Shown here: positions 17,705-62,415 of the stretch, piece after piece
Numbering within the stretch: position 1 is the stretch's first letter
Layout of the letters: every line of letters begins with the position of its first letter
IMG/VR virus record: IMGVR_UViG_3300046463_000247
Location: 34,046 to 98,045 of that record
DNA length: 64,000 nt
Source of the DNA: a virus
Direction: 5' to 3' (one strand)
Made by a program: the position numbers and the translations under genes
The notes under the pieces: model-generated
The model's database searches: none
Seen by the model: the letters and a program-made list of their open reading frames with translations, nothing else
Told to the model about the DNA's origin: nothing

Positions 17705-17737
17705 GAGGTTTCACTCCTTGAACTGGGTCTATAAATG

Positions 17738-17762
17738 AAAAAGGGCGGGCCTAAGCCCACCC
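17738..17762 (-). terminator. Rho-independent terminator after the tail tube gene
   Basis: GGGTGGGC-TTAG-GCCCGCCC-TTTTT on the minus strand. Confidence 0.7.
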
Positions 17763-17801
17763 GGATACTACGCTTCCTAACGGGAAACTACAGCTTTTCG
17801 C

Positions 17802-18836
17802 TTACGCTTGAGCCAGCAGCTTGCGCACCGTGAAGAAGCGCGAGCCCACCGCGCGCATCGGGTCCGACAGCACCGAACCTTCGAGCGTGATCTGGCCGAA
17901 CGTATCGCTGATCAGCGACAGTTCCTTCAGCGGGTCCGTCGAGAACTTGAAGATTTCCACGACGACCGGGCTGTTGCCTTCGGCGGTGTTGAGACCTTCG
18001 AAGCGCAGATAGACTTCTGCCTGAGCCTGCGTCAGCGAATCGGTCAGCGTCTGGTCCACGAAGTCGTAGTCCACCGTCAGTTCCATGCCGTCGAACACGG
18101 CCTTCGGCGTGGCCGTCGCGGTGATGACCTTGCCCGTGGTGTCGAGTCCGATGGTCAGGTCCGCACCCGTGGACGACAGCACCGTGAACGTCTTGTTGTT
18201 CAGCACCGCAGCGTCCGCGCCGTCGAAGCCGTAGAACGACGCCTGGTCACCCGTGCTCAACGTGTTCGGCACCGTGATCTTGGTCGTGGCACCGACCGTG
18301 ACGCCCGTCACCGCGACGCCCAGCGTGTCCAGCGGCGTGATTGAACCGTCGTTGATCTTGATCGAGCCCGCGTCGAGATTGACCGCGTAGTCGTACGGCG
18401 TCGCGTCGTCCGTGTAGGGCGTCAGCGGGTTTGCGCCCTGGTTCACGATGACGTTCGACACGCCAATGTTCGCCAGTGCGGAGATCGCGCCCGTGTAGCC
18501 GATGATCGGCTCTGCCGTGACCTTGCCGCCGACGAGCGTCTTGGACTCGCCGCGCATTGCGACAGCCATGTTCTCCGGCGACCAGTTTTCCAGCGTGGCC
18601 GACAGGGTAACCTTGGTGTCGGTCGAGAGACGCTTGTCCGTCGCGCGCTGGCCCGAGTGCGATTCCTTGTGCTCGACCACGGTCGTCGCGACGCTGATCT
18701 TCAGGTCCGGCACGTTGCCGACTGCCCGCAGACCACGCGGCTTGCCCGTGACGGCATCGCGGACGCCCAGCATCAGGACGCCCTGACCCGAGTAGTAATG
18801 GTCCTTCGTGTCCCACTTACGATTTACTTCGCTCAT
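17802..18836 (-). CDS. Major tail tube protein (with a probable internal accessory beta domain)
   Basis: YYSGQG...VGNVPDL.I...EHKESHSG.R..D motif; LRFEGLN; position before chaperones. Confidence 0.85.
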   Translation of the reverse strand: MSEVNRKWDTKDHYYSGQGVLMLGVRDAVTGKPRGLRAVGNVPDLKISVATTVVEHKESHSGQRATDKRLSTDTKVTLSATLENWSPENMAVAMRGESKTLVGGKVTAEPIIGYTGAISALANIGVSNVIVNQGANPLTPYTDDATPYDYAVNLDAGSIKINDGSITPLDTLGVAVTGVTVGATTKITVPNTLSTGDQASFYGFDGADAAVLNNKTFTVLSSTGADLTIGLDTTGKVITATATPKAVFDGMELTVDYDFVDQTLTDSLTQAQAEVYLRFEGLNTAEGNSPVVVEIFKFSTDPLKELSLISDTFGQITLEGSVLSDPMRAVGSRFFTVRKLLAQA

Positions 18837-18907
18837 AAAAGCTCTCCTTTTCCCGGGAAATGTTACGAGCCGAAGTGTATCGGCCCGGGGTGCACCTAAC
18901 AAAAGAA

Positions 18908-19342
18908 TCAGACCAGTTGAACCGGCACGGACCACCGTTGCAGGTACAGGAGCACCGTGTCTTTCTTAGCCGCCTGGGCTTCCACCAGGAACTTCCAGTG
19001 CGCCGCCACCGGGGAGCGGCCCTCGCGCATCGCGGCGCGTACGTCGTCCAGCAGGGCAATCGCGGACGCCTTGTTGTTGTGCCCGGCAAGCTGTTCGATC
19101 TTCGTCATGATCACGAGACCGAACACCGCTTCGCACGAGATACCGCGCTGCTCCTTCGTGTCCACCGACCGCATGCCCTCGTACAGGTAGCAGACCTGCG
19201 GAAACGACGTGCCCTTGATCTTGTTCAGCGCTTCGTCGTCATCGAGCACGAACAGCACGCGCCCCTTCAGAATTGCAATTGATTGCAAACGGGCGTCGAT
19301 GTCGTCCAGGCACTTCTGGACCAGGTTCTCATTCACTCTCAT
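18908..19342 (-). CDS. Putative tail terminator
   Basis: 144 aa, upstream of the tail tube; pattern resembles Mu gp37-like terminators. Confidence 0.55.
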   Translation of the reverse strand: MRVNENLVQKCLDDIDARLQSIAILKGRVLFVLDDDEALNKIKGTSFPQVCYLYEGMRSVDTKEQRGISCEAVFGLVIMTKIEQLAGHNNKASAIALLDDVRAAMREGRSPVAAHWKFLVEAQAAKKDTVLLYLQRWSVPVQLV

Positions 19343-32193: not shown

Positions 32194-32982
32194 TCAAACA
32201 GTATCGTTGCGCATCGCGCGCTTGACCCAGATGTTCTTGCGGGATTGCATCGGGCGGATCGACGGCAGCTTGCGCGGGCCGCTGGCTTTCTTCTCCCGCG
32301 TGCCGACGCCCATCGAGCCCCAGCCGTCACCGTAGATCGGGTCGGCCTTGCCACCGCCGCCGTTACTGCTGACGCGCCCGGTCGTCGGGGCGTGGCTGTC
32401 GAAGTTATCGAAGGGGGCGCTACCGAACAGGTCGCTGCCATACAGGTTCGACGGCGACCACTTGCCGGTCGAATACGTGCGGCTCTTCGACCCGGCCACC
32501 GGCTTGACCCCGTAGTGCTTCTCCAGGAACTTGATCTGCGACTCCGACTCGACCGCCTTCTGGCAGTAGTGCTTGCGCACGTAGGTGATCGCATCGGTCT
32601 CGCCGGTCATGAAGGCGACCAGTGCGGCGAAGAACGTGCCCGTGCGGCCATGTCCGCCGATGCACCCGGCGTGGACCTTCTTGCCCGCCTTGATCTGCGC
32701 TGCCGTCCACTCGACCAGGTTGCGGAACTCCACCGCGTCCATCGGCGCGTGCATGTCGGTCACCGGGAAGTACACCTCGACCGGCCCCTTGTCCGCATGC
32801 CACGGCCAGCTTGCCGCCGTCAGCTTCATCCCGTGATCGAATCCGATGTACACGTCCGCATCGAAGACGGCAGGGCTCAGGCACGAGCCGCCATACACTT
32901 CCCAGTCGCCGACTTTCAGCGCCGGGTGATCGTGGTAGCACATCTTGTAGCCACCGTTGCTCTTGCCGTTCTTTGCTTTCAT
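32194..32982 (-). CDS. CX5R (PTP/dual-specificity) phosphatase 2
   Basis: VTDMHAP acid loop; VHAGCIGGHGRTG P-loop; AVE..SQ motif. Confidence 0.85.
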   Translation of the reverse strand: MKAKNGKSNGGYKMCYHDHPALKVGDWEVYGGSCLSPAVFDADVYIGFDHGMKLTAASWPWHADKGPVEVYFPVTDMHAPMDAVEFRNLVEWTAAQIKAGKKVHAGCIGGHGRTGTFFAALVAFMTGETDAITYVRKHYCQKAVESESQIKFLEKHYGVKPVAGSKSRTYSTGKWSPSNLYGSDLFGSAPFDNFDSHAPTTGRVSSNGGGGKADPIYGDGWGSMGVGTREKKASGPRKLPSIRPMQSRKNIWVKRAMRNDTV

Positions 32983-33011
32983 GCAATCGACTCCTTCGAT
33001 TGTTGCTGGTT

Positions 33012-34064
33012 TCAGGCCGTAGCCTTGGATTTGGTTTTGCCGCGTTCGAGGATCGCGACGGACTGCCCGGGGAACACCTGCCACTCACCCAGCACCTTCG
33101 TGAAGCCCGGGGGCAAGGTGACCTGCTTGCCCGGCTCGCCGTACTTCTCGGCCTGCATCTGCTTCTCGTGCGGGTACTTCTTCAGCGCGCCCAGCGCTTC
33201 GACCTTGTACCAGTCGCAGTACTGGCCGAATTCGTCAGGCCACTCGGTGCGTGCGGCCATCGCAAGCGCGTACAGGTCGGAGAACTTCTTCGCGAAACTG
33301 TGCGACTCGTACATGTCGATCAGCAGTTCGACGCACTGGCCGCTGCGCTGCACGTCGAGAATCTTGTAGATCAGTGCCGAGTAGTCGTCGTACAGCATGC
33401 CCTTGTTGAACATTGGGCCGTTATTGTGCGCGAGCGTCCACGCGGTGTCGATCATCACCTCCAGGCTCGTCTCGCCGTTCACGAAGCGCGAGAGCGTCTG
33501 TGCGATGTTGCCCCACGGCTTGCCGCCGTAGCCACCCGAGAAGTTGCCCTCGTTGAACAGGAACGTCAGCCCCTCGCAGTACGGGCCAAGCTGCATTTCG
33601 GGCGGGTTGTCGAGTAGCGCTTCCACCGCAGTGTGCGATCCGCCGCCCTTGATCAGCTTGTTAAACGCGTAGAAGGCGCTGCCGTACTTCTCTTTCGCCA
33701 GCTTCGGCGTGGCTTCGTCCTTCACGTGGCGCGACTCGCGGGTCGTGATCAGCAGCATGTAGTGGAACAGCCGCAGCCCCTGCGACGCGAGGGCCGAGGT
33801 GTAGGCTTCCATGACCTTGCGCGCCAGCGGCGTGAGGAACTGGTGTCGGGTGAAACGCTTCTGGACGACTGCCGCCAGGTGATTCAGCGCGTAGAAGCGC
33901 AGCGCGTCGGTGTCCGGCTCGGCGAGGCCACCGGGACCTCCGTTCTCCTTGTACGTTTTGCAATTGATTGCAACGCGGGAGACGAGGTAATGGCCGACGC
34001 CTTGCGGGTGCATCTGGGGAGCGCTGAGGTAGTACGCGAGGGTATTCTTGTCTTCGAATCGCAT
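33012..34064 (-). CDS. Conserved-looking hypothetical protein (350 aa) in the dikinase/phosphatase module
   Basis: Motifs TRESRH, GGYGGKPWGNIA, HNNGPMFNKG; has its own promoter and hairpin SD. Confidence 0.7.
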   Translation of the reverse strand: MRFEDKNTLAYYLSAPQMHPQGVGHYLVSRVAINCKTYKENGGPGGLAEPDTDALRFYALNHLAAVVQKRFTRHQFLTPLARKVMEAYTSALASQGLRLFHYMLLITTRESRHVKDEATPKLAKEKYGSAFYAFNKLIKGGGSHTAVEALLDNPPEMQLGPYCEGLTFLFNEGNFSGGYGGKPWGNIAQTLSRFVNGETSLEVMIDTAWTLAHNNGPMFNKGMLYDDYSALIYKILDVQRSGQCVELLIDMYESHSFAKKFSDLYALAMAARTEWPDEFGQYCDWYKVEALGALKKYPHEKQMQAEKYGEPGKQVTLPPGFTKVLGEWQVFPGQSVAILERGKTKSKATA

Positions 34065-34097
34065 GGCGGCTTCACTCCTTGAATGCCGATCTGATAC

Positions 34098-34589
34098 TTA
34101 GGATTCTACCACAAACGACCCGTTTGTCAAACATGTGCGAAATTGAAACAGCGCCTTGATCCGGGCTTTCCGCAGCATTTTCTTCACTTCAGCCGGGATC
34201 GGGTAATCCAGCACGAACTGGTACTGGTCATCCGTCTCGACCGCGTGCGGGTAGTAATGCTCGCGCACGTACTCGACCGGCATCTTCACGCCAAAAGCCT
34301 TCGCCAGGATCGACAGGAACAGCCCTGTGCGGCCCCGTCCCGCGTAGCAGCCCACATACACCTGCTGCCCGGCGAGGACCGCTGCGACCGCCTGCGTCAG
34401 CCCGGCATCGAGCAGGTCTTTCGACGGGACACTGAAGTCCTGCGTCGGAATGTCAATGTCGGCCTTTGCGCCGATTTCCTTCGCCATCTTGACGCCGACC
34501 ATGTTCGCCGGACGCGCCAGATACGGACCGCCTGCGACCGTGAAGTGCTTCAGACCCATGAGTACCGGGAGATTGAGGGTTCCGTTCAT
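34098..34589 (-). CDS. CX5R (PTP/dual-specificity) phosphatase 1
   Basis: IPTQDFSVP acid loop; VYVGCYAGRGRTG P-loop; AVET..Q motif. Confidence 0.85.
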   Translation of the reverse strand: MNGTLNLPVLMGLKHFTVAGGPYLARPANMVGVKMAKEIGAKADIDIPTQDFSVPSKDLLDAGLTQAVAAVLAGQQVYVGCYAGRGRTGLFLSILAKAFGVKMPVEYVREHYYPHAVETDDQYQFVLDYPIPAEVKKMLRKARIKALFQFRTCLTNGSFVVES

Positions 34590-34920
34590 GCTTGTGCAAC
34601 TCCTTTGCGTGTGGCCCGTAGACCGTTTTGATTTGACCAACATAGCCGCAGTGCTTGCAGCCTTCTCCTTCACAGTGCTCGCATTCGTCCCACGCGGTGA
34701 GACTGGTGCGGGCGCTCAACTGGCGTTCCGGGGGCGCGACGTGGGTCATGCTGTGCACCCGCGCGCCGTCCACTTCGAACAGCCAGTTATTGAACCTGCG
34801 GTTGCCGCGTTCGTGCGTGATCAGCGCGGCGCACCGGACCATCTGCTGCAATGCTTCGGGGGTGATACTCTCGGCAGCGCAGACACGCGCCACCTGGTCA
34901 GATTGTTCTAATGCGGACAT
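34453..34920 (-). CDS. Hypothetical protein with a DnaJ-type Zn finger
   Basis: CEHCEGEGCKHCG motif; the 3' end overlaps phosphatase 1. Confidence 0.55.
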   Translation of the reverse strand: MSALEQSDQVARVCAAESITPEALQQMVRCAALITHERGNRRFNNWLFEVDGARVHSMTHVAPPERQLSARTSLTAWDECEHCEGEGCKHCGYVGQIKTVYGPHAKELHKHERNPQSPGTHGSEALHGRRRSVSGASGEHGRRQDGEGNRRKGRH

Positions 34921-35155
34921 GGGTCGGGGCCTCGAAAGCCAGTCGGGGGCGCTGGCTCGCGTCGTGATGCCGAAGCCCGTAACTGACGAATGTTTCATCC
35001 ATGAGTTCGACCCGCGCCTGATCCGTGACCTCGTACGTGCGACCGTTGAATTCGACCGTCACCGAGTTGCCCCGCTGCACGGCCACCACGTTCAGCACGC
35101 CGTTCGTGCCCACCTGAATCTTCGTGCCGCGCGAAACGCCAATACTAAGTGCCAT
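34898..35155 (-). CDS. CsrA/RsmA-like small beta protein (apparent tandem duplication)
   Basis: By eye: N-half MALSIGVSRGTKIQVG..VLNVVAV.RGNSV resembles CsrA beta1-4, and C-terminal RLAFEAPTHVRIR resembles CsrA RIGVNAPKEVSVHR. Confidence 0.55.
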   Translation of the reverse strand: MALSIGVSRGTKIQVGTNGVLNVVAVQRGNSVTVEFNGRTYEVTDQARVELMDETFVSYGLRHHDASQRPRLAFEAPTHVRIRTI

Positions 35156-35579: not shown

Positions 35580-35614
35580 TACTTGCTGAAAGTGGCGGCG
35601 AATATAGCCGTAAA

Positions 35615-37570: not shown

Positions 37571-37661
37571 CTGGCTATTCACTCCTTGAATTGGCCGTTG
37601 AGTCATCAGAATAACACACCGGCCCGGATTGTCAAACAGTATTTCAGGCCGGTGCCGGTCG

Positions 37662-37949: not shown

Positions 37950-37952
37950 GCT

Positions 37953-39975: not shown

Positions 39976-40164
39976 GTTCGTCACTCCTTGACGGGTTAGA
40001 AGGCGGTGTTTGTGTTCAGCAATCACCGTAAGAATGATTCTACCCCAACCCTGCGGATAGTCAAACACTCTTTGCAATTGATTGCAAACTCTTTTGTAAC
40101 AGCGGCGGATGTGAAAACGGGGACCGAAGCCCCCGTCTGTCCTGCTTCTGCCTGTGGGTCGGTG

Positions 40165-42860: not shown

Positions 42861-42898
42861 AAAAAAAGACCCGAACCACTTCGAATATGGCTCGGGTC
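42861..42898 (-). terminator. Rho-independent terminator
   Basis: GACCCGAGCCA-loop-TGGTTCGGGTC-TTTTTTT on the minus strand. Confidence 0.8.
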
Positions 42899-43056
42899 GA
42901 AAGTCCGGTTGAGGGGTAAATGACAACCGGGGACCACCGGATGCCGCCGCGCGACCATTGTGCGCTTGCAGCAAATTCTGTTCAGTTCAGGGGACGGGTA
43001 CTCCGCATCGGCGATGTCGCCGGAATCAGACCGCACTCCTTGCAGGCCCTGTATGG
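42861..43056 (-). ncRNA. Candidate structured small RNA (~195 nt)
   Basis: Promoter TTTACA-16-TACACT (43062-43089), five consecutive hairpins, intrinsic terminator at 42861-42898, no credible ORF. Confidence 0.55.
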
Positions 43057-43141
43057 GCTACAGTGTAACACAAGCGACCGGGTTGTAAACACGAGGCGTC
43101 CGCCAATCGCCAGCGGGTGTGCGCCAGACCGCATATTGGCC

Positions 43142-43459: not shown

Positions 43460-43606
43460 GCAGCCCCTTCCCTTTCGTTCTAAGTGTCCGTTTATAAAGG
43501 ACTTTTACCTTGTTGCAGCACGGTAAGAATCCTATCATCAGCGGAATCACGGTCAAGGGTCGCCGGGAAATTCAGTGTCAGGACTTTGTAACAGGACGTT
43601 GCAGCG

Positions 43607-44477: not shown

Positions 44478-44555
44478 GTAGCGAGCCCCTGTCGGTGGCG
44501 TGGCTACCCCTTACCGTTGCGCCCCCGATCACAGGCGGGCGCGGGTCCATATAGT

Positions 44556-45140
44556 TCAGCCAGCGTCTGATGCGCCGGGCATTGATTGCTGCGATTGCTG
44601 CGGGTGCTGCGGTGCTGCCGGGTGTGTCGTGACGGGGACCGCGACCCCCGCCAGTTGTTCGAGTTCGGCGATGCGCTCACGCGCGGCGGACAGTTCGAAC
44701 AGCGCGGACATGATGAACTTGCCGCCCACCTCCTGCGCGATGTCCGCGATCCACGGCTCGCCGTAGCGCAGCACCGGTATGGTGCCATTGGTGCCGAGGA
44801 TCGCCGTGTACTTGCCGTCCACTGTCAGCCGCGAATATTCGGTCACGCCGTCCGGCACGCCGGGTGTCATCGACACAGCAGCGGCGGCGGGGTCGAGGTT
44901 CACTTCCATCGGCTCGTCGTCGGGCGCATCGCTCGCGAGGATCGGCGGCAGTTCGAACACGGCGGCAATCGCACTCAGGCGGCACTGGCCGCTATCCCCG
45001 TCACCCAGTGGTGGCGTGTAGTGGATGCTGCCGTCCGCTGCCTGGTGCGTCACGGTGACGAGTTGCTGGGTCTGCCTGCTCTGGAGCACCGTGCCTTCGG
45101 GCACGCCTGTGCTGCTGGTGAGATCAATTATGTCTGCCAC
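44556..45140 (-). CDS. Hypothetical protein
   Basis: First gene after the promoter at 45165-45192, with hairpin SD. Confidence 0.6.
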   Translation of the reverse strand: MADIIDLTSSTGVPEGTVLQSRQTQQLVTVTHQAADGSIHYTPPLGDGDSGQCRLSAIAAVFELPPILASDAPDDEPMEVNLDPAAAAVSMTPGVPDGVTEYSRLTVDGKYTAILGTNGTIPVLRYGEPWIADIAQEVGGKFIMSALFELSAARERIAELEQLAGVAVPVTTHPAAPQHPQQSQQSMPGASDAG

Positions 45141-45574
45141 GTCGCACTCCTTGCGCTGGGGTAAATTCTACCTGCTGGGTTGGGATTGTCAAATACGATT
45201 CTGCTGCAATTGATTGCAGGCAGCGGGTTCGCTGACGGCGCTCGGAGCGGCCTCCGGCTCCGGCGCTTCGGCCTCGCCCTTCGCGCGTTGCGCGGCCATG
45301 GACGACTGGCTCCACGTATGGTCGTCGGGCAGCGCCGGTTGGCGGGTGGCGGACAGCAGCGTCTTCAGCAGCGTGGCGAGTCGGGTCAGCATCGGTGGTC
45401 TCTCTCAGGTGGTTGTGTGGTCGGGTTTACCCTCTACAGGACTTTCCCGGATTGTGCTTATCGTCTTACTGTGGTAGTGCGTGGCTGTGTCAGGACCCGG
45501 ACCTTACAGATAAATAACGGAGCGGGTGCTAACCAGTTTTATGTCAAATGGTATTGGCGGGTGTTTCCTTACAG

Positions 45575-45997
45575 TCACCCTTCTGTTTGCGGCGGTGCAA
45601 CAGCCGGGTCCGGGCCGTCGTCCGATCCTTTGGCCGCTTGCTTTACCACCGGACTCGTGATAGCGCTGCGCATGTTCTCCTGGTCCCAGCGCCCGCTCGT
45701 CCCCAGTGATGCGATGAACGCCTTCGCCTCGGCGAGCGTGTCGAAGCTGTGCGTCTCGGTGGGCGAGTAGTACTTGAAGCTGATCTCCACCTCGAAGCCG
45801 AAGTCGCCACCGCGCAGCAGATGGTCGTACTTGTCCACGACCGCACGGGCGCGCGAATACTTCTCGTCCAGCCGGGGCACCGCATCGTCCAGCAGCATGC
45901 GGATCACGTCGTGCTTCAGCTTCTCACGGGCCGTGTCGGCGATGCCCTGCTCGGATGTGGACAGGCCCGCGTACCACTCGTTGTAGTCCTGGCTCAT
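45575..45997 (-). CDS. Hypothetical protein
   Basis: GAGG SD, coupled to the upstream gene. Confidence 0.55.
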   Translation of the reverse strand: MSQDYNEWYAGLSTSEQGIADTAREKLKHDVIRMLLDDAVPRLDEKYSRARAVVDKYDHLLRGGDFGFEVEISFKYYSPTETHSFDTLAEAKAFIASLGTSGRWDQENMRSAITSPVVKQAAKGSDDGPDPAVAPPQTEG

Positions 45998-46539
45998 TGC
46001 GGCACCTCGCTCTGGATCGCCTGCTGGTAGTCGGCGCGCTTCAGTTCGGCTTCGAGCACGGCCTTGGCGTCCACGATGATCTGGAACGCCTCCGGGTCCT
46101 GACCCATCCCCTGAAGGATCGCGCCCGTGAGCGCCACCATGTTTTCGAGCGCCTGCCGCTTGGTGGGCAGAACCGCGCTCGGCTGTTTCTTGTCGGTCGT
46201 TACTGGCATGCTGGCCTCCACTGGTACGTTATAACGTTGCGTCCTTGGTGCTGGGCTGTATCGAAGATACTCAGTGCCCTTGCGGTAGAACACCACGCCG
46301 GGTTCACTTCTTACTGCGTCGTCAACCTTCCTGTTGCCAACCTCGCTGAATTCCCTGCGAAACCGGCTCAGAGGCATCCGAAAGCCGTGCGCCTCCAGTG
46401 CGCTCGCCGCTGCTGCCTGCGACGTTGCTGAGATCAGCACCGCTGTGAACCTGCGGGTGCCGTCCTGCGGTAGGTGCAGCATGCCGGAGTACACCATCAG
46501 TTTGTCGGCTGCTTCTGGCACGGTCTGCTCCTTTTGCAA
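45994..46539 (-). CDS. Hypothetical protein (start uncertain)
   Basis: ORF track; coupled to the downstream gene. Confidence 0.45.
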   Translation of the reverse strand: MQKEQTVPEAADKLMVYSGMLHLPQDGTRRFTAVLISATSQAAAASALEAHGFRMPLSRFRREFSEVGNRKVDDAVRSEPGVVFYRKGTEYLRYSPAPRTQRYNVPVEASMPVTTDKKQPSAVLPTKRQALENMVALTGAILQGMGQDPEAFQIIVDAKAVLEAELKRADYQQAIQSEVPQ

Positions 46540-46553
46540 TTGATTGCAGGTGG

Positions 46554-46829
46554 TTAGATGAAGCCCTTGGCGCGAAGGGCACTGACGGCGGTCTGTGCGT
46601 CCCCAGCCCCAAGGTGGATGAAGCCCTGGAACGCGCGGTCGGTGACCAGCACGCCGTCGAACTCGCCCTGGCTGTCGCGGTACACGAAGGTCGCGCTGCG
46701 TCGGATGTAGCTGCCGTCGATCAGGTGCTTTACCACCGCGTCGATGTCGTTCGTGACGCTCACCGCGCCGTTCTGGTCGAGCACGACCACGGTGTCGCCG
46801 ACGCGGGTGATCTGGATCGTCGCTCTCAT
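46554..46829 (-). CDS. Hypothetical protein
   Basis: SVTNDID.VV...VYRDS.G.FDG motif seen in small phage proteins. Confidence 0.55.
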   Translation of the reverse strand: MRATIQITRVGDTVVVLDQNGAVSVTNDIDAVVKHLIDGSYIRRSATFVYRDSQGEFDGVLVTDRAFQGFIHLGAGDAQTAVSALRAKGFI

Positions 46830-47128
46830 TCGTCGTCCTTGTATTCGCGCTTGGCGTTGGTCCGGTTATCCGGGTTCAGCGTGCCGTCGATGCGCTTCGC
46901 CTCAATCCACGAGGTCCACGGGTCCGGCTCGACCTTGAAGTAGAAGCCGTCGCGGTTCTGCACCAGCAGTCCCATTTCCAGCAGCTTGCCGAGAATCGCG
47001 CCAGCGGTGCGCCCGTGCGCGGTGGCAAGGGCTTCGAGGTCCATGCCCTGCGCCAGCCGTTCACGAAGCTCGCGCCGTTCTTCCAGCAGCCATGTCTTGC
47101 CCGCGTTGCGGGGCGGGGTCGTGCTCAC
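46826..47128 (-). CDS. Small Myb/HTH-like protein
   Basis: NAGKTW..EE...L....G.....A..HGRT.GAI..KL..MGL pattern. Confidence 0.55.
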   Translation of the reverse strand: MSTTPPRNAGKTWLLEERRELRERLAQGMDLEALATAHGRTAGAILGKLLEMGLLVQNRDGFYFKVEPDPWTSWIEAKRIDGTLNPDNRTNAKREYKDDE

Positions 47129-47451
47129 TCCAGGTCCTCCCACTTCACCACCTCGAACTGGGCGATGCCCTCGCCGTCCGTGTGGTGCCACCAGAAGCCG
47201 ATGCCGTCGATGCGCGCCTTCACGTCAGACGGCTCGATCAGGCTGAAGCCTTGCAGCATCGTCACGCCGCGCAGTGCCAGCTTCTCCAGCGCCTGTGTAC
47301 GGTACTGGAGCACCAGAGCATCCAGTTCGTCATGCGCGGCCTTCTGGGCGCTGTCTCGCAGCAGCCGGGCCGCATATACCACCTGGTCATGCAGTTCTTC
47401 GGCCTTGTGGATGTTGCGCCATTCAGTTTCGGCTTTCTGTTTGGGGTTCAT
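47125..47451 (-). CDS. Hypothetical protein
   Basis: First gene after the promoter at 47490-47518. Confidence 0.55.
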   Translation of the reverse strand: MNPKQKAETEWRNIHKAEELHDQVVYAARLLRDSAQKAAHDELDALVLQYRTQALEKLALRGVTMLQGFSLIEPSDVKARIDGIGFWWHHTDGEGIAQFEVVKWEDLE

Positions 47452-47730
47452 CGTTCGGTTGCCCTCTGGGTTGTGATTGTGTAAGGGTCATTGTGCCCTC
47501 ACTGTAAGGGATTGTCAAACGCTCTTTGCAATCAGTTGCAAAAAAGCCCCTTGCGGGGCCGGGTGTTGCGGTGGAGTGCGGGCGCGATCAGATACGCAGG
47601 AGTTTCGCCGGGTGCGCGGTCCGGTAGCTCGTGTCGGGGGTGTGCCGCTCGGGCGCGCGGGGTGCCTCGGCCTTCAGCAGACCGACCGCCAGCAGGAACC
47701 CGGCGACGAGGCCGATCAGGATTCCGCGCT

Positions 47731-48060
47731 TCACAGCACCGGCTCCCACAGCATCGAGCCGACCGGGCGGGCCATCATTTCGCGGGCCACCATCTTGTGC
47801 AGCGGCGCGCGGCGGTCGTCGCACTTGGCCGGGTCCTCGCAGCGGCCACCGTAGACGATCACGCCATCCGAGTTGAACAGCGCGAACTCGTGCGTCCAGT
47901 CGGTGTCGCTCGTGTAGCCCCGGATGAACTCGCGGCGTTCGGCCACCGGCATCTTCTCCAGTTCTTCCTTGGCCTTGTCGGACACGAACACGGTGCCCCA
48001 GCCGATCCGGTTGTGTGTCTTGGCGTGATCCGAGCGATCCATCGTGATTACCCACTTCAT
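47731..48060 (-). CDS. Hypothetical protein
   Basis: Hairpin SD after the promoter at 48096-48123. Confidence 0.55.
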   Translation of the reverse strand: MKWVITMDRSDHAKTHNRIGWGTVFVSDKAKEELEKMPVAERREFIRGYTSDTDWTHEFALFNSDGVIVYGGRCEDPAKCDDRRAPLHKMVAREMMARPVGSMLWEPVL

Positions 48061-48535
48061 TTCCGCACTCCTTGCGCAGTTATCTGATGCTTTTAATTCT
48101 AGCGCAAGCGTGCGGCGTGTCAAACAGACTTTGCAATTCTTTGCCGGTCTTTTGTAACACGGTGTTCTATTTCCGGGCTAGAACTTCACGAAGCCGGGAC
48201 GTTTTGCAATTGATTGCACGGGCATTCGGCGAGGCCGCGCCATTCGAAGCCGCCGAGCCAGCCGCAACTCCGAAGGTCCGTGCCGCCCGCTCGACCCACT
48301 TCCTTGGCCTTGCCGTTCTCGACCTCGATATAGGCGACGGTGCCCTCTTCGTTCGTCAGCCCGGCGCGCTCGTACTCGAACGGCGAGCCCTTCCAGTCCC
48401 GCTTGCGGACTTCGTACCAGCCGCTGCGTGCCGGAGGCTCACCGCTCACGTTGAACCACTGGGTGCGCGGTGCGGTGGCGAACGGCTCACGGATCGCGAG
48501 GATCGTCGGGTCGGTCTTCATCTTCATGGGCGTGC

Positions 48536-48718
48536 TCATTGTCGGTTCAGGTAGCGGGTCAGTCGGAGCAGCTTCGTGGCGGCGTACACCACGAGGCCAG
48601 CGAGGATCAGGTGCCACGGGTTGTGCGTCGTGACCAGCAGGTAGACCTCGCCGACGACCAGTGCGACCAGACCGGCCACCACCAGCAGGAACAGCGCGGC
48701 GTAGAGTTTGAAGATCAT
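48536..48718 (-). CDS. Small two-TM membrane protein
   Basis: Two hydrophobic segments in 60 aa. Confidence 0.5.
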   Translation of the reverse strand: MIFKLYAALFLLVVAGLVALVVGEVYLLVTTHNPWHLILAGLVVYAATKLLRLTRYLNRQ

Positions 48719-49020
48719 GCGACCACCTTGGCGTCGGGTGCGACCCAGCCGTGCTGCACGCGCAACTGGTGCAGCCGGGCCGCGTAGGCGAGCGTCGAGT
48801 CAGCGTTCATCGCAGCGCGGAGTTTCTTCAGCGCGCCGTCCAGCGTGTAGGTCGGGCTGATCACCGTCGCTAGGTCGTCGTCCGTGCACGTCACCGCGAT
48901 ACGCGTCCACTCGTCGGCCTGTTCCGGCTCGTTCATCGACGCGTAGTGCGTCGCCTGGCTGGCCGCATGCTGGCGGACTTCGGCCAGTAGCTCCATCTTC
49001 CAGTCGGGCATCTTTGCCAT
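48715..49020 (-). CDS. Hypothetical protein
   Basis: AGGAG SD, coupled to the next gene. Confidence 0.55.
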   Translation of the reverse strand: MAKMPDWKMELLAEVRQHAASQATHYASMNEPEQADEWTRIAVTCTDDDLATVISPTYTLDGALKKLRAAMNADSTLAYAARLHQLRVQHGWVAPDAKVVA

Positions 49021-49065
49021 TGCTAGGCTCCTGTGAAAACCGCCCCTTTCGGAGCGGCTGGCGGG

Positions 49066-49332
49066 TTAGTGGACGAGCTTCAGGACGAGGGCGGATATGA
49101 GGCCGGTCTGGATCACGCCGACCCCCACCATCGCGAGGATCATCTGCACCTTGGTCTCGGACAGCGCAGCGCGCAGGTCGGACGCTGTAACCAGCAGGTC
49201 CTGCTTGGTGGCGACCTGCCCTTCCAGCGCGCGGTTCACTGCGTTCGCGAGTGTTTCCGCATTGTGCTCACTGAGGGTGCCATCCGAGGTCAGGTCCTTG
49301 ATCAAAGCGTGTGTGTCGATAAATGCTGCCAC
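49066..49332 (-). CDS. DUF1640/CCDC90-like coiled-coil protein with a C-terminal TM anchor
   Basis: IDTHALIK.L..G.LSE..AE.L...VATKQDL...TM. Confidence 0.65.
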   Translation of the reverse strand: MAAFIDTHALIKDLTSDGTLSEHNAETLANAVNRALEGQVATKQDLLVTASDLRAALSETKVQMILAMVGVGVIQTGLISALVLKLVH

Positions 49333-49376
49333 TTCCCGCACTCCTTGCAGTAGGTTGTTTTGTTGACTACCCCTGT

Positions 49377-52300
49377 AGTATAGCACAATCGCTGGTTTAG
49401 TCAAACAATTGCAATTGATTGCAAAACCCGGTCAGCCCAGCTTCTCCCAGTCGCCCCGCGCGATTGCGGCCTTGCTGACGAACCACGCCATCAGCGCTTT
49501 CAGTTCCTCGAAGGTTGCAGCCGCCTCGATGCGCTCGCCCAGCACGTCGCGGGTGGCGTCGTCCCAGTAGTCCTGCGGGGTATCGTACGAATACTGGCGG
49601 GCGCGGTTCGCGATGCTGGCCTCCAGTTCAGCGAGGTCTAGTTCGTAGCTCATGCTGTACCTCTACCATACGCGGCGCTGAACTCGTGCATCAGCGTGAT
49701 CGCTACTATCTGGAATGCCGCCGACTCCGGTTTGCCTTCGAAGCGGCGGGCGTATTCGCCGTACAGCGGCTTGTCGGTGAGCACCAGCAGCAGTTCCAAC
49801 CAGGAGAGCCCGCCCCGCTCTGCGAGCCTGTCCACGGTCTGCCCGTGGTTTGCCAGCGCCTGCTTCTCGTGGCGCTTCACGAGGTCGTACGGCACTACCA
49901 GCGGCGAGTGGAAGTGCTGTTCCCGGCACCGTCGCACGCATGAGTCCAGTATCGGGAACGTCTTCATGCCGCCTCCAGCACGCGCTTGCCACCCTTGAAC
50001 GCGAACGCCACCGGCTTGGCAGGCGGGACAAACGGCTCAGCCAGTACGGTGCCGCCCTCGTCAGTCAGCACGCCAGGCTGGCCGAATGCGTTGACCATCT
50101 GCTGCGCCTCGATGTGCGCGTCCTCGATCATGCTGGCGTCGAGCTTCTGGATGCCGGGGCCGATCTTCAGGCGGAAAGGTTTCTTCATGGCCTCAGCCCC
50201 CCAATGCTGCTTGCGTAGAAGCCGTCCGAGTACTCCAGCACCCGGTTGCTCATAGTGTCGTCCGTCGTTTCCACCAGCAGCAGTTCGCCGTAGCGTCCGT
50301 CCGCCTGGGAGTACGCCTCCAGCACTATTCCATGCTTGCGGCATACCTCGGCCAGTTCGTCCACTGCGGCCTGTAGCTCTTCTTTCGTCTTCATGCTCAG
50401 TCACCCCACCGGCTCAGGTCTTCGTCCACCGCTTCTTCCGGCGTATCGTCTTCCTCGCGGTCTTCCCAGAGCGCCAGTGCAAAGTCGCGCGCCTGCGGGG
50501 TCGATACCCCTGCCCTGTCCACGTAGCGGGTCGTGGCCCGTGTAATCCATTCTTCCTTCGTCATCCTATGCCTCGAATTTATGGCCGACAGCGATGTCTT
50601 CGGCCTTCATCAGAGTATCGCACATGATCTCGGTCTCCGACTCCCGGCCCCATGAGTTGTACCGCACCTTCACCCACCAGTGCCCGTATTCGTAGCGGGG
50701 CTGGGCCAGCACGCGCACCACCACGCAGTCCACGAGGTTCATCCGCCGTTCTCCCGGTCGTCCTGCACCAGAATCTGAATCGCCGTCTCGCCACCCTGCA
50801 CAATGCGCTCTTCCAAGGTCTGCGTGGAGAAGCCCCGGTCGATCAGGGTCTGGTAGGCGTCACGCTCCAGCACCGCCTTCTCGGCTCGGCCTAGCGCGCG
50901 CTCGTACTCGCGCAGCGGGCGGGTCACCAGCAGGTCGGTGCGGAGATTGGCGGGCAGGTTCTTCAGCACCTCCATCGCGAGCGACGCCTGGCTGAGGTCC
51001 TTGTACTGACGCATGCGCGCGGCAATGCGGGCGAGTTCGTCGGCTGCGTGTTGCATGCCCGCTGCGATCTGGTCGATCACCTCGGCAGTCGGTTCGACGT
51101 TCAGTTGCTGGGTCATGGTGCCACCGCCTTGTAGCCACGGTCGTACACGATGCGCGCCACGACTGCGTACGTCTCGGCGTCCACGATGTTGGCGGTCTCG
51201 CACAGGTTGCGGCAGCGGTCCACCGCCTCGACCTTGGCTTCTTCGAGTTCGGTTGCGTGCATCGGGCGCACGACCCCGGATTGAAACGACAGGACCAGTA
51301 TCACGGTGCCTCCTGAAAGAACGACCAGCACGCCCAGCCGGGCGAGGTCTGCATGTTGATCTTGCGGCCCACGTCGGCCTTGCGGATATGGTACGTCGCG
51401 TGGCCGTGGCCCAGGTAGTTGGGCTTCTGCGCGCCGATGTCCGACTCTTCTATCTCGAACGTCTGTTCATCGAACGTGCCATCACCGCCCCACGCGTTCT
51501 TGCGCGTCACGCGCTTCTTCTCGGTGAGTGCTTTCATGCGAAAGGCCCCTCCACGTAAATTTCCTTGCGGATCGTGCCCGGGTAGCTCACCACCGTTGAC
51601 ACCAGCCGCAGGCACGTCCCCACGTCGATGTTGGCGGGCACCGGCTCGTTGCCACCGTACAGCACGTCGGTGATGTACTGCTCCGTGCGCCCGTCCTGCT
51701 TGAGGATCACGCGGGCCGCGTTGCATAGGGCGTCGCGGTCGTTCACGCGGACGAAAGTCTTGACCTCGTACAGGTTGCTCGCCATCACAGCGGCCCGAAG
51801 TCGTTGGTCGGCTCGCGCTCCATGCCCGAGTACTTGGTCCACAGCTTGTCGTTGAACGACTCGTAGCGGGCCACGTTGGCGATGAAGGTCGGGGTCGGGA
51901 AGGTGCTGTACGCGTCACGCGGGCGGAACACCTGCTCCAGCGTCTCCGGGTTGTTGCCGGTCAGGATCGCGATTTCCCGCAGGAAGCCCCCTGCCACACG
52001 GTTGTACTGGTAGCACGCTTCGGCCCACTCGCGCATCAGCTTCTCGCCGTCCATGTCCGGCCCGAACAGGTTCTGGAACGCAGTGTCCACCTGCTCATAC
52101 ACAGGATTCAGTAGCTTGGCGATCTCGAAGATGCGCTTGGCGTGGACGGTGATCGGTGCGGGCGTGCGGCCCGTCTGAGTGCCCTTGTCCATCGTGTAGG
52201 TCTTGGGATCGAATCGGTCGTCTGACTCAGGTGCCTTGGGCGTCATAGCCGCTACGTGGGCGCTTGCCGCCTCTTCTGCGGTCTTGCCCAGCCCGAAGTA

Positions 52301-52499
52301 ATACGTGGCAGCGTTCCAGTCTACCGTGCCCACCAGCGACGGCACAGCCTTCACCACGTGCTCTTCGAAGGCGGTCATCCACTCGGCCTGCTGCTCTGCT
52401 TTACTCTTCGCCATGTTCACTCCTTGAATGTGGCTGTTTTGAACTAAAGCCAGTATAGCACAATCGCTGGTTTAGTCAAACATTTGCAATTGATTGCAA
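49377..52499 (+). repeat. 48-bp direct repeat (47/48 identical) at 49377-49424 and 52452-52499
   Basis: AGTATAGCACAATCGCTGGTTTAGTCAAACA(A/T)TTGCAATTGATTGCAA, i.e. promoter plus palindrome. Confidence 0.9.
51785..52414 (-). CDS. Hypothetical protein; first of a coupled run of ~9 short ORFs extending to 49432
   Basis: Hairpin SD after the promoter at 52452-52479; downstream ORFs overlap by ATGA/GTGA. Confidence 0.6.
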   Translation of the reverse strand: MAKSKAEQQAEWMTAFEEHVVKAVPSLVGTVDWNAATYYFGLGKTAEEAASAHVAAMTPKAPESDDRFDPKTYTMDKGTQTGRTPAPITVHAKRIFEIAKLLNPVYEQVDTAFQNLFGPDMDGEKLMREWAEACYQYNRVAGGFLREIAILTGNNPETLEQVFRPRDAYSTFPTPTFIANVARYESFNDKLWTKYSGMEREPTNDFGPL

Positions 52500-53253
52500 C
52501 TCAGGTCCACGAGTGCATCACGGCGAAGTTGTCGAGCGCACGCAAGGCGGTGCGGGCCAGCGCCAGTTCACTGCCGATGCGCTTGTCGATCTCGGTCTGC
52601 ACGACGCCCTTGTCTGGCCCCTGCCTGCGGCGCACCACCGCCACGTCGGGCTGGTCGAGGAACGTGAGGGCGCGGGTTAGCTGATCACGAATGCGGTCGA
52701 TCTCGGCGCGCTGCTTGCGGGTCAGGGTTGCCATCGTTGCGCTCCAGTTGGACTACGCGCCCAGTCTAGCCCACCGCAGTGCGGCGGCGAGCGTCAAGGT
52801 CACTGCATGTTTCGCCAGCACCTTCAGGTCGTCTTCGATGTAGATGGTTTTCGGCATGAACGACCATGCGTCGATGCGGGCGTGGTAGTAGCGCAGCGCG
52901 CGGCTGTGCAGCCAGAAGTTCTTGTACACGTAGGGGAGTTCGCCACCCCAAGGGAGTGGTGTTTTCAGGCCGGGTGCGTAGGTGCGGACCTGGTAGCGCC
53001 ACGAATGGGCACCTGTGCGGTCGGATACGAGGGCGATCTCCGCGATGCCCCCGCTCCTGACCTGGACCAGCTTTCTGAGGCCGTTTTTCACTGCCGACTC
53101 CTTCGGGTTGTGTGGTTGCCTGAGACACAATTTAACACAACCCTGCGGTTAGTCAATCAGTGCGGTCGGTTTTTGCAATTGATTGCAACTTTTGTGGCGG
53201 ATTCCACGCGTACAGCCATGCGCGCCACCACAGCGTCGTGAGCGTCAGCAGGC

Positions 53254-58361: not shown

Positions 58362-58766
58362 GCTTCACTCCTTGAAGTCTTGGGTTGGCCCGCCGAAGCG
58401 GTTGTCATTCACATTGATCTTGCCGCGCCTCTAGGATCAGGCGCACGCATTCTGCTATGGCTTCGCCGCGCCGATACGTGCGCGGGCTTACGCCGACGAT
58501 GGACCACAGGTGCGTAAAGTCGTCACGCTCAACAAGAAATCTTCCTACCCGGAAGGTTGTGCGACGAACCCATTTACCACCTAGCTTGACGCGCACTGCG
58601 TTGTCCGTTGAGACCGTGATCGAGTTGATGCTGGCTAGGTCGATTGCGTCGCGCTCGTTCATCGTCATTCCCCTTCGTTGTTGGTAGGTGCCTTTTGACA
58701 CCGTACCCCTAGTTTAACCCAACGCGCCGGGATTGTCAAACACACTTTGCAATCAATTGCAAAATA

Positions 58767-59690: not shown

Positions 59691-59955
59691 ACGCTCTATA
59701 CGGGTATCGGGTGGTGGCCTTCCCTCGATATGTAGCTTATCGCTATCTATAGCGGGGAATACCGTAAAGTTGGCGCATGGTATCGGTTGCTGGTTGATGG
59801 GTCAATCTATGGGTGTTTCCTCTCTATGTGTGTCTAGTGTATTTAGTTCTTTCGCCCGCAAAGTTGCCCACCCTCGAATTGCAATTGATTGCAGCCGACA
59901 ACAAAAAAAAAGCCCGCACGGGGCGGGCATGAAGTACTGCTGTTGCTACGTGGTT

Positions 59956-60447
59956 CTATGCGGCCAGCTTCCACTCGATCAGCGGTGTGTCGCCCTTCAC
60001 GTACAGCGGATGTCGCGGTGAGCCGTTGGCGGTTGTGCCCAGACACAGCACCTGCCGGTTGCGGCCCGTCTTCGTGAATATGTCGTACACCTGCTTCACG
60101 CGATCAGGGCGTGCATTCGTGCCCCATGCGAATACGACGGTTTCGAACTCCAGCGCCAGCTTGCGCAGGTAGTAGTCGTTCTCCGGTCCAACAGGATCGT
60201 GGTGCTCCCACAGGGCGGCAGGCTTGGTCGAGCGCAGCGCGTACAGATTCGCCACCACAATGCCGTTGCAGTCCCATGACTCGGCAAAGCGGCGGCAACG
60301 CCTGATCGTGTGGTCGTCCAGTACGGCGTCCGCCTTGCTCGGGTTGAGCATGATGAACAGCGCCGTGCCCTTGTACGGGTTTCTCTGCGTGGCCGGGCGG
60401 GTGAGCGTGTAGCGGTAGGTTCCGCAGTCACTGATGATCGCGGTCAT
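59956..60447 (-). CDS. DUF1643-family protein
   Basis: YRY.L.R...FIMLNPS.AD...DD.T..RC...NLYA.RST.P...AWG...PRHPLY. Confidence 0.85.
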   Translation of the reverse strand: MTAIISDCGTYRYTLTRPATQRNPYKGTALFIMLNPSKADAVLDDHTIRRCRRFAESWDCNGIVVANLYALRSTKPAALWEHHDPVGPENDYYLRKLALEFETVVFAWGTNARPDRVKQVYDIFTKTGRNRQVLCLGTTANGSPRHPLYVKGDTPLIEWKLAA

Positions 60448-61810
60448 GCGGGCACCTGTTCGAGTTGATGGGCTACCCGTAGGATTTCCCCGTGTGAGAC
60501 CGTGCGCAGCATTTCCGAGCGGCCACGCTTCACGTATTCGTCCACCGACATCTTGCGCCAGTCCGGGTGCGGTCGGTCGTTGCACAGCGTCCACGGCGCG
60601 TCGGGGCTCGCCCGGCGATGCACATAGACGCCCACCGAACGATGCAGGCCCAGCCCGAAGAATTCTTCCGCCGTGATCCTGACCTCGGAGCCGTCGTCCC
60701 GCTTGATGGTCTGCACTGCCTTTGCCATTTCAGTCCTCCAGTGCTTTCAGCACCTTCTTCAGTTCTTCTTTGCCGTATTCCGTCGCGTGTACCTGCTGCG
60801 TCGCGATGGTGTTCAGTTCTTCGATGATCGCGGTCAGGGTCTCCCTGTTATCACCCCGCATGCGCTTCACCAGGTCGCGCAGCTTGTCGAGCGGTTCTTG
60901 CAGGAAGTCTTCGCTGGGGAACTGGCCCATTGCCTCATGTACACAGGGCGCTGAGGCCACCGCCTCGCTCAGTAGTGGCGCAACATCCAGCAGTTCCTCG
61001 ATCCGGTCTGCGGGCAGGGTGCCGGTCAGACTGTAGACCTCTTCGTCGGACAGGCACGAGGTGGCTTGCGGGTTGAACCGGGTCAGCGTGCCACTCGTAG
61101 CGGGTTTGGTGATCGTGAGCATTCGGGTCAGTGTTCGTCGCAGTAGAAGTCCACAGCCAGCGCGTACTGCGGGTCCAGGATGCGGATGATGGTGCCGAAG
61201 TCATCCGTGGTTTGGCGTGCCCACCAGAGCGCGCTGAAGTACAGGTCGCTTGGCATCACCGGCTCTTCGGGAATGCCCAACCGCCACGGTTGCGGTCGAA
61301 GTAGTAGGCGGTTATTGCGTCGTCTTTCACGTGAGCGTTCAACGCGCGGGCGGCGTCCTTGTGGTTGTTCAGGTACAGCCAGTTGATGCAGTCGTCCGTG
61401 TTCTTGAACTCGCGCAAGTCCTTGCCGTCTTCGTCGGACAGCAGCACACCTGCCGTGCCGTCCCACGCGTGCCAGTTCTGGAAGATGAAGGGTTTCATAC
61501 CGACCCCCGTCCCAGCGTCACGCACTTCTCACGCATCGTGCACGCGCCACCCTCACACGACTCACACGGTGCGCAGTCCTTGTCGAGCGGCTTGCCGTTG
61601 AAGCCCTGCATGTACATGACGTGCTGCGCGCCGGTCTTGCCGATGCTCGTGGGTGCCCAGCCGTAGGCGCGGTGCTTCTGGCCCATGCCATAGCACTGCT
61701 CGTCGGTCGGGCAGGTATCGAGTTGGTGCTGAAGTTCAGCGAAGTTGATTTCGGGCATTCGTAGCTCCTGCAATCAATTGCAAAAGCCCGCGCATGGCGG
61801 GCCGGGTTCG

Positions 61811-62107
61811 TTACATGAGTCCGAGTTCGCGGGCTTCGTTGAACAGGCGGAATTGGTCGCGGGTGCGGTTGGTCGCCTGGAGTTCGGTCGCGCCGTTCGC
61901 CATCAGTTCGGCGATCACCTCAGCGCGGAATTCCGGGGAGGTGTAGTACTCGGCGTCCGACTGGCGCGTCACAGCGTCTTCCTTGGCAGCAATCTTCTGA
62001 ATCTCGCGCTCCGAAAACACGTTGGTGCGACCCGTCCGGTAAATCGGCTTGAGGTCGTGGCGGCGGATGATGGCGAGTTCTTCTTTGGAGAGGGCTACCA
62101 GGGACAT
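61811..62107 (-). CDS. Hypothetical protein
   Basis: First gene after the TTGACA-16-TATAAT promoter, with hairpin SD. Confidence 0.6.
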   Translation of the reverse strand: MSLVALSKEELAIIRRHDLKPIYRTGRTNVFSEREIQKIAAKEDAVTRQSDAEYYTSPEFRAEVIAELMANGATELQATNRTRDQFRLFNEARELGLM

Positions 62108-62415
62108 TTGCGACTCCTTCGCATGTGTTGGTTAAGTCAGTGAGAGAATTATAACCCACCCAGCCGGATTGTCAAACATTCTTTTCAGAAAGGCGGGCCG
62201 AACTGCATCGCGTGGACGATGGCCTGACGCGGCGTCGGCTCGCGCTTGAAGTTGTTGCCGCCCACCCACGGCTCGGCCTCGCTATACTGGGTCTGGGTGT
62301 GGAACACGGCGTAGCCCTCGTGTGCGTGGTCCACGTACGCTTCGTTGGCGATCAGCCACCCCAGCATTTCGGTGTCGGTTCTGGTCTTCATGTCGGTTTG
62401 CAATTGATTGCAACG

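Follow-up and report, generated by a model that had tools for sequence, protein, structure and literature searches.

The 64-kb window analysed here (the whole stretch) covers positions 34046-98045 of the 98,045-bp genome of an uncultured phage, an IMG/VR record that has direct terminal repeats and is named G000 below. It carries a set of Shine-Dalgarno (SD) sequences that are presented in the loops of small hairpins. These sites form one class of translation-initiation region, in which A(N)GGAG is the 5-6-nt loop of a weak hairpin of ~4 bp located 5-11 nt upstream of the start codon. Most copies stand on the first gene after a host-type sigma-70 promoter. The hairpin is kept at orthologous genes while the stem sequence changes, and the element is common to a large group of 80-120 kb siphoviruses. 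Comparisons of the sequences suggest that the hairpins may be operators for a phage CsrA-like protein, the 85-aa product (P0001) of an open reading frame (ORF) in the same window, a reading to which we give a probability of about 0.45.

Scanning the whole G000 genome showed stems of at least 3 bp at 21 of the 77 AGGAG sequences on the coding strand and at none of the 17 on the other strand. The stem lengths are bimodal (56 sites with 0-2 bp and 21 sites with 3-7 bp), and all 21 hairpins read A-AGGAG-U with GGA in the loop. Gene calls and SD classes are heuristic throughout this analysis. The hairpin rates at SD and non-SD sites, which the original prediction had set against each other, are far from equal: a stem of at least 4 bp is present at 18 of the 42 SD-type AGGAG in G000 and at none of the 35 non-SD ones. 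Pooling 11 genomes gave the same picture (110/643 SD-type vs. 15/933 non-SD AGGAG with at least 4 bp, Fisher 5e-30), and the flanks of non-SD AGGAG pair at 25% per position, which equals chance. When all 1024 pentaloops were scanned on hairpins of at least 4 bp, AGGAG ranked first with 18 of its 77 occurrences, and the runner-up loop reached 5. These results support the conclusion that the hairpins are selected for pairing and are specific to SD sites.

All 14 AGGAG-loop sites listed in the original prediction are present on the minus (coding) strand of the window, each reading A-AGGAG-U with 3-7 Watson-Crick pairs. An ATG or GTG follows 5-11 nt downstream at 13 of them, and the site at 43040 has no usable start codon. 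The sites at 49345 and 43040 reach five pairs only if one G-U is counted. The genes singled out as targets (the PPDK-like gene, both phosphatases, the 350-aa protein and the tail chaperone) do carry the hairpins. The sites and the candidate trans factor are as follows, with DSP/PTP standing for dual-specificity/protein tyrosine phosphatase.

62109..62123, minus strand: SD hairpin UGCGA[AGGAG]UCGCA; ATG 62107 of a 98-aa ORF; -10 element TATAAT 29 nt upstream.
58363..58377, minus strand: SD hairpin CUUCA[AGGAG]UGAAG; ATG 58361, 72 aa.
53094..53106, minus strand: SD hairpin CCGA[AGGAG]UCGG; GTG 53091, 112 aa; promoter-proximal.
52416..52428, minus strand: SD hairpin UUCA[AGGAG]UGAA; ATG 52414, 209 aa; promoter-proximal.
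49336..49350, minus strand: SD hairpin CUGCA[AGGAG]UGCGG, with three Watson-Crick pairs, one G-U and one Watson-Crick pair; GTG 49332, 88 aa; promoter-proximal.
48064..48076, minus strand: SD hairpin CGCA[AGGAG]UGCG; ATG 48060, 109 aa; promoter-proximal.
45143..45155, minus strand: SD hairpin CGCA[AGGAG]UGCG; GTG 45140, 194 aa; -10 element only 13 nt upstream.
43031..43045, minus strand: orphan copy CUGCA[AGGAG]UGCGG; lacks a start codon at SD spacing; TTTACA-16-TACACT promoter 21 nt upstream.
39979..39993, minus strand: SD hairpin CGUCA[AGGAG]UGACG; ATG 39975, 140 aa.
37577..37591, minus strand: SD hairpin AUUCA[AGGAG]UGAAU; ATG 37570, PPDK-like gene (PF01326, PF00391); promoter-proximal.
34898..35155, minus strand: 85-aa ORF P0001, the candidate trans factor, CsrA-related by weak sequence signals.
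34596..34608, minus strand: SD hairpin GCAA[AGGAG]UUGC; ATG 34589, DSP/PTP phosphatase.
34071..34083, minus strand: SD hairpin UUCA[AGGAG]UGAA; ATG 34064, 350-aa protein (phrog_20946).
32984..33002, minus strand: SD hairpin CAAUCGA[AGGAG]UCGAUUG of 7 bp, the most stable at -7.0 kcal/mol; ATG 32982, second phosphatase.
17710..17722, minus strand: SD hairpin UUCA[AGGAG]UGAA; ATG 17704, pre-tape-measure chaperone (PF23789).

The claim that the stems vary in sequence yet keep pairing held up well. Over the 14 window sites, 90% of the cells are paired compared with 58.9% in shuffles and 24-43% in slid controls, and the covariation score is 0.796 vs. 0.179 in shuffles (reached by 0 of 500 shuffles). 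Since these sites had been picked for pairing, a fairer test took the G000 sites chosen by sequence only, namely AAGGAGT followed by a start codon (n = 21). Pairs 2, 3 and 4 are Watson-Crick in 20/21, 20/21 and 18/21 of them, whereas 11.3, 7.6 and 6.7 are predicted from the column composition, and three or four pair types occur at each stem position. Pair 5 is formed in 9/21 sites and pair 6 is at chance. Taken with the pooled genomes, pairing exceeds chance at pairs 1-4 and falls to chance at pairs 5-6. Comparisons of orthologous genes showed the same exchange of stems. The 350-aa gene has UUCA/UGAA, UCCCA/UGGGA, CUCA/UGAG and GUCA/UGAC stems as well as CUCA[AGGGAG]UGAG, and the DSP/PTP phosphatase gene has GCAA/UUGC, GCUA/UAGC, UCUCA/UGAGA, ACCUA/UAGGU and CCUCA/UGAGG. 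At closer range, in a relative ~96% identical to G000 (run X10), the hairpins at 32995, 34079 and 34604 are unchanged inside among the differences listed, so compensatory evidence is absent at this level of identity. Rfam gave no match at gathering score in the 64-kb window. At the hairpin-free SD-type AGGAG of G000 (in the window, e.g., 61769, 49032, 46532, 44104, 18848 and 1483) the next base is nearly always C or A (AGGAGC); a U follows AGGAG at all hairpin sites and never at the hairpin-free ones. Thus, G000 has two distinct classes of strong SD.

The predicted energies of the G000 hairpins lie between -0.1 and -7.0 kcal/mol (mean -3.2), and the mean predicted probability of hairpin formation is ~0.5 in a 70-nt context. 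AGGAG is predicted to be unpaired at 0.76 in the hairpin SDs, compared with 0.43 in the 17 hairpin-free SD-type AGGAG of G000. The SDs had originally been described as locked in the hairpins, a description that does not survive: the SD is the loop, the stems are weak and the predicted accessibility is above that of other SDs, so that in the folding model the SD is exposed, or displayed, rather than locked.

The promoter-proximal position noted earlier for many targets was borne out at the genome level. G000 has 34 near-consensus promoters (TTGACA-16/17-TAnAAT) on the coding strand, and 16 of the 21 hairpins follow one at a distance of 13-48 nt, an association with an odds ratio of 14 relative to other gene starts (p 8e-7). 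The genes marked by hairpins, most of them placed behind strong sigma-70 promoters, thus resemble a regulatory class. The copy at the pre-tape-measure chaperone gene is the only hairpin in the 30-kb structural module. The orphan copy at 43031..43045 forms the 5' end of a candidate RNA of ~195 nt (42861-43089, minus strand) between a promoter and a terminator; its sole ORF has 8 codons, its folding z-score is just -2.3 and it holds one canonical hairpin copy. A second intergenic motif, the 14-bp palindrome TGCAATCAATTGCA, lies just upstream of many genes that have no SD hairpin. It occurs window-wide, for example at 61770-61783 and upstream of the starts 56097, 53697, 46521, 24209 and 2520 (minus strand), is present too in Summit, G003, G004 and G011, and may mark a second class of promoters or operators.

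G000 has a GC content of 62%. The GC content at third codon positions is ~0.85 in minus-strand ORFs only, indicating that all genes are on the minus strand of the window. The sequencing runs carrying the G000 sequence are rhizosphere metagenomes, and no RNA run is among those listed. Among named phages, those closest to G000 are Summit, DLP3 and DLP5 of Stenotrophomonas (Delepquintavirus), at ~50% portal identity; Rhizobium phage RHph_Y1_11, Rhodobacter phage RcZahn and several Vibrio phages that form a group are further off. Scans of genome contigs and metagenome contigs found no close relative, and two more scans of viral contigs, with distant members of the P0001 family as queries, yielded nothing further. 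The X10 relative, whose contig reaches up to 103 kb, comes from a run of 2020 that bears the name of an organism as its label; a close relative, cultured or host-associated, may thus exist. Against the window at 32900-52500, its early region differs by several insertions or deletions the size of a gene (skips of 296, 312, 358, 374 and 725 nt).

A hairpin was counted in the relatives if its stem had at least 3 bp, its loop was A(N)GGAG and a start codon followed 3-13 nt downstream. The counts are highest in G010 (38), G004 (37), RcZahn (28), G003 (26) and RHph_Y1_11 (22), and lower in G000 (20), G011 (20, in a genome of 47% GC), G005 (19), G002 (16) and G001 (14); two partial contigs, G012 and G013, have 12 each. 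More than 250 sites in the relatives likewise hold GGA in a hairpin loop. Comparison of the loops showed A(N)GGAG to be their general form, in which GGAG invariably fills the 3' end; the first base is A in 90 of the 125 pentaloops and in 51 of the 79 hexaloops. N is constant inside a genome and differs between lineages: it is missing in G000, G004 and G010, and is U in Summit, G002, G003 and G005, C in RHph_Y1_11 and A in RcZahn. Some lineages favour AUGGAG and ACGGAG loops over AAGGAG, the better SD. At 28 gene starts of RcZahn the site reads xxxC[AAGGAG]Gxxx, the outer stems being of many kinds, which fits the CsrA/Rsm consensus CANGGANG, and the GCUC[AUGGAG]GAGC type found at part of the G002, G003 and G005 sites is an exact fit to it. 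The stems of G010 hardly vary (CCCA/UGGG or GCCA/UGGC in ~25 of 31 sites) and many are preceded by a GC-rich stem-loop; the uniformity suggests a genome-specific optimum or the spread of a cassette. A second, unstructured SD (AAGGAG or GAGGAG) stands between the hairpin and the start codon at G001 64283, G003 96673, G005 47319 and G001 97134, giving two GGA motifs ~10 nt apart, an arrangement typical of two-site CsrA targets.

The feature is not universal, as in more distant portal relatives, sampled at loci centred on structural genes, ~7 of every 100 SD-type AGGAG have a hairpin. Hairpins are not enriched in Vibrio phage LV6. In Summit, stems of at least 3 bp are nearly absent, and gene starts instead have CA[AUGGAG]UG (13 times) or UA[AUGGAG]UA (4 times), in which the second pair covaries perfectly, although the 2-bp stem is not stable alone. 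This ribosome-binding site (RBS) motif, CAATGGAGTGA / TAATGGAGTAA, occurs at ~17-24 gene starts (e.g. record positions 29065, 53169 and 89115) and can be read, too, as a mini-ORF of two codons, ATG GAG TGA or TAA. The Summit stem is followed by A in 15 of 17 cases, a base that has no pairing partner, pointing to a stop codon or a protein contact. As an explanation of the hairpins generally, the mini-ORF was rejected because it fits Summit only. Among the papers searchable, the literature on DLP3 and on Rhodobacter phages does not mention the hairpins.

The ORF at 34898..35155 had been put forward as encoding a possible trans factor. Its product is a member of a conserved family in which the CsrA signals are weak but recur; the family stays below the Pfam CsrA threshold, and the fold searches returned no CsrA. 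Of its 531 cluster representatives, 100 members were compared with Pfam, and 54 matched CsrA below threshold (best E 2.7e-6), with other families matched by at most two members each. The scores (~20 bits at most in the family and 20.7 bits for the homologue gp7 of RcZahn) do not reach the CsrA gathering cut-off of 27 bits. RcZahn gp7 matches CsrA at E 4e-4, and its N-terminus MALILSLKEGQDFYVGNE is CsrA-like as judged by eye. Searching CsrA sequences with the hidden Markov model (HMM) of the family gave 11-14 bits, or P ~1e-5 per comparison. The N-terminal MALSIGV and the C-terminal RLAFEAPxxIxIxR are near-invariant in the family, and the latter aligns with CsrA beta4-beta5, with R84 opposite Arg44, in a weak HMM alignment of 11-14 bits. 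In CsrA the elements that contact RNA are beta1 and beta5, with L2/L4, V42 and R44. The alignment of the family with a single E. coli CsrA sequence by hhalign reached a probability of 15%; the search for CsrA homologues yielded near-identical enterobacterial sequences only, and thus no deep CsrA profile. Neither P0001 nor the family profile matched a CsrA in sequence searches of the PDB, and P0001 has no PHROG.

The AlphaFold2 model of P0001 is a nine-strand monomer with a predicted local distance difference test score (pLDDT) of 87.7; the CsrA fold is an interdigitated beta-sandwich dimer. The nearest ESM Atlas clusters are one named 'carbon storage regulator family' (TM 0.83) and a viral cluster with PF02599 in 91% of its members (TM 0.80). 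A comparison of the N-terminal and C-terminal halves of the family for an internal repeat was negative (E 0.14), which leaves a 'tandem CsrA' architecture unproven; P0001 could be either a fused pseudo-dimer or a CsrA fold with an insertion. Canonical CsrA, RegA and RegB are absent from G000. A homologue of P0001 is present in 14 of the 14 related phage genomes examined. In Summit, RcZahn and RHph_Y1_11 its gene lies 1-2 genes downstream of the PPDK-like gene and is annotated 'hypothetical' in the records. The gene order is kept across phages of alpha- and gamma-proteobacteria, with the PPDK-like dikinase, the CsrA-like small protein 1-2 genes on, and then the tyrosine/dual-specificity phosphatase. 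This PPDK/phosphatase module spans 32194-37570 (minus strand) of the window, 85515-90922 of Summit, 4303-8764 of RcZahn and 80820-85693 of RHph_Y1_11; the modules of the window and Summit also hold the 350-aa protein and the second phosphatase.

The resemblance to CsrA/Rsm sites pointed out in the original prediction is supported: GGA lies in a 5-6 nt loop starting with A, on a stem of at most 4-5 bp, and the element overlaps the SD, as in the operators of CsrA, RsmA and RsmE (e.g. hcnA and glgC; consensus RUACARGGAUGU). Selection experiments in vitro (SELEX) showed that CsrA prefers GGA in a hexaloop beginning with A on a stem of at most 4 bp, with flanking AC and GU paired (PMC7652899). The operator reading is favoured because the sites match this architecture and because pairing with 16S rRNA leaves the loop constraints unexplained, both the preference for AUGGAG or ACGGAG over AAGGAG and the lineage-specific N. 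Extended pairing with 16S rRNA (AAGGAG-UGA, with a bulged rRNA base) was itself rejected, since the 3' arms vary and covary with the 5' arms. The operator reading is favoured further because Summit conserves the motif though its 2-bp stem is thermodynamically unstable, because the gene of the CsrA-like protein is conserved, and because Rhizobium phages carry the hairpins while S. meliloti is, like Burkholderia, reported to have no chromosomal csrA (PMC7366521). In the proposed mechanism, P0001 would bind the GGA loop together with the closing pairs and, once bound, would compete with the 30S subunit, so that the marked genes would be tuned or shut off as a set, in the manner of CsrA/RsmE on hcnA and glgC or of T4 RegA on ~30 early mRNAs. 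With one hairpin per target, P0001 would act through one binding surface.

Several points weigh against operators for P0001. Every SD contains GGA, and any hairpin with the SD in its loop thus resembles a CsrA site. The G000 loop is a pentaloop closed by A-U rather than the canonical C[ANGGAN]G, though the window sites are readable also as C[AAGGAGU]G. LV6 has the P0001 gene and no hairpins, and Summit has the gene and almost no stems of at least 3 bp; as a core gene, moreover, its presence does not discriminate between the explanations. No sponge RNA (a cluster of at least three hairpins) and no paired CsrA-type sites were found in any genome scanned. A Pfam search with P0001 alone gave no hit, CsrA (PF02599) included, and structural comparisons of its AlphaFold2 model with the PDB by Foldseek and VIA-align showed generic beta-sandwich matches only (best Z 7.8) and no CsrA chain. 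The function of P0001 could also be tied to the PPDK/phosphatase module rather than to RNA control.

The main alternative, somewhat less probable than operators, is that the hairpins act in cis, independently of any factor, and it accounts for many of the same observations. The mini-hairpin would keep the purine-rich SD out of long-range pairing and pre-stack GGAG on the 3' side of the loop for rapid capture by the 30S subunit, its weak stem melting on binding, and would mark genes for which initiation has to be efficient and independent of context, for example first cistrons whose leaders are short. The higher predicted accessibility of the hairpin SDs agrees with such a display, as do the weak stems held to ~4 bp, the normal spacing between SD and start codon and the enrichment at promoter-proximal first genes. 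Up to 38 copies per genome are many for a repressor regulon, and the failure to find sponge RNAs or paired sites, together with the few or no stable hairpins of LV6 and Summit, counts on the same side. However, display in cis does not explain the conserved first A of the loop, the preference for AUGGAG/ACGGAG over AAGGAG or the genome-uniform N of each lineage. The conserved 11-mer of Summit with its 2 bp cannot pre-organise anything alone, and the element is present in the 47% GC genome G011, where insulation from GC-rich structure matters less.

The same site architecture would also suit operators for the CsrA/RsmA of the host, by which early phage mRNAs would be tied to the Csr/Rsm state of the cell or would titrate the host protein, and the hosts of the Stenotrophomonas phages belong to a group that generally has RsmA. 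This reading is unlikely: one conserved host protein would leave the lineage-specific variants of the loop unexplained, and RHph_Y1_11 has 22 hairpins though rhizobia are reported without chromosomal csrA (PMC7366521). Cleavage in or beside GGAG by an endoribonuclease, either RegB-like or of the host, which would inactivate or process early mRNAs, has a precedent in T4 RegB, which cuts GG*AG in early-gene SDs (PMC3014915), and the marked genes here are mostly of early type and promoter-proximal. We consider it very unlikely, as no RegB or RegA homologue is found in the genome (PF10715 and PF01818, E up to 10), RegB sites are unstructured with an A-rich 3' context and are protected by structure whereas the sites here are hairpins whose 3' arms are not A-rich, and RNase III would need a far longer stem than ~4 bp. 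Least credible of all is a palindrome acting at the DNA level, as a protein operator, an N4-type hairpin promoter or a boxB/nut-like antitermination site, with the overlap with the SD incidental. The sites are indeed inverted repeats mostly near promoters, but their arms vary freely with complementarity alone kept, which argues against sequence-specific binding of double-stranded DNA; all 21 copies are on the coding strand and none on the other; the SD spacing from the start codon is fixed, also at genes away from promoters; and the ORF list holds no ORF of the size of a virion RNA polymerase. Strand specificity, copy number and fixed SD spacing were the grounds for rejecting the lambda boxB/nut and N4 hairpin-promoter versions.

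The closest known systems compare as follows. CsrA/Rsm operators share the short A-initial loop with GGA, but the loop in the window is an A-U-closed AGGAG pentaloop, and their mRNAs have two or more sites each while those here have one; sponges of the CsrB/RsmZ type, which belong to CsrA systems, were not found here. Canonical CsrA has 60 aa, compared with 85-100 aa for the divergent putative phage protein below the Pfam threshold. CsrA-family genes of unknown role are carried by phages, including those of hosts that lack csrA (Sobrero and Valverde 2020, PMC7366521); the surveyed phage CsrAs are canonical, were found by PSI-BLAST and have no target sites described, whereas the protein here is longer and highly divergent and comes with a genome-wide set of candidate operators. 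In T4, RegA represses ~30 early mRNAs at A/U-rich sites with AUG, and the RegB nuclease cuts GGAG in early SDs at unstructured GGAGRAYARAA sites, where structure protects from cleavage (PMC3014915). Phage-encoded post-transcriptional control at the initiation regions of a set of early genes would be common to T4 and the system proposed here. However, the hairpins here contrast with the unstructured, A/U- or A-rich sites of T4, and RegA and RegB homologues are absent. The coat-protein operators of MS2, PP7 and Qbeta are likewise small RBS hairpins at which a phage protein represses translation, as is proposed here, but they occur once per genome, have other loops and enclose the start codon, whereas the hairpins here enclose the SD.

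Under either reading, operators or display in cis, the hairpins are a simple signature in the sequence by which true gene starts, and a class of genes, can be recognised in a poorly annotated group of phages. If the hairpins act alone, they would represent a natural, widely conserved design rule for a context-independent RBS, useful for RBS engineering in high-GC hosts. If they are operators, the protein of ~90 aa and the 13-nt RNA would make a compact orthogonal pair for translational control. Cultured members of the group are available (RcZahn, RHph_Y1_11, Summit, DLP3 and DLP5), which makes the question directly testable. Phage csrA genes are, as far as found in the searchable literature, otherwise known from sequence surveys only, with their targets undescribed (PMC7366521); operators here would mean a phage-encoded CsrA-type regulator with a defined genome-wide target set. 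Tentatively, the group of 80-120 kb siphoviruses may run its own CsrA-type regulon, in which a divergent, self-contained CsrA-like protein of 85-100 aa, probably with one binding surface, would recognise A(N)GGAG-loop hairpins at the RBS of 12-40 genes per genome and the loop would co-evolve with the protein by lineage, in phages that infect alpha- and gamma-proteobacteria, and possibly beta-proteobacteria, including hosts reported to have no CsrA.

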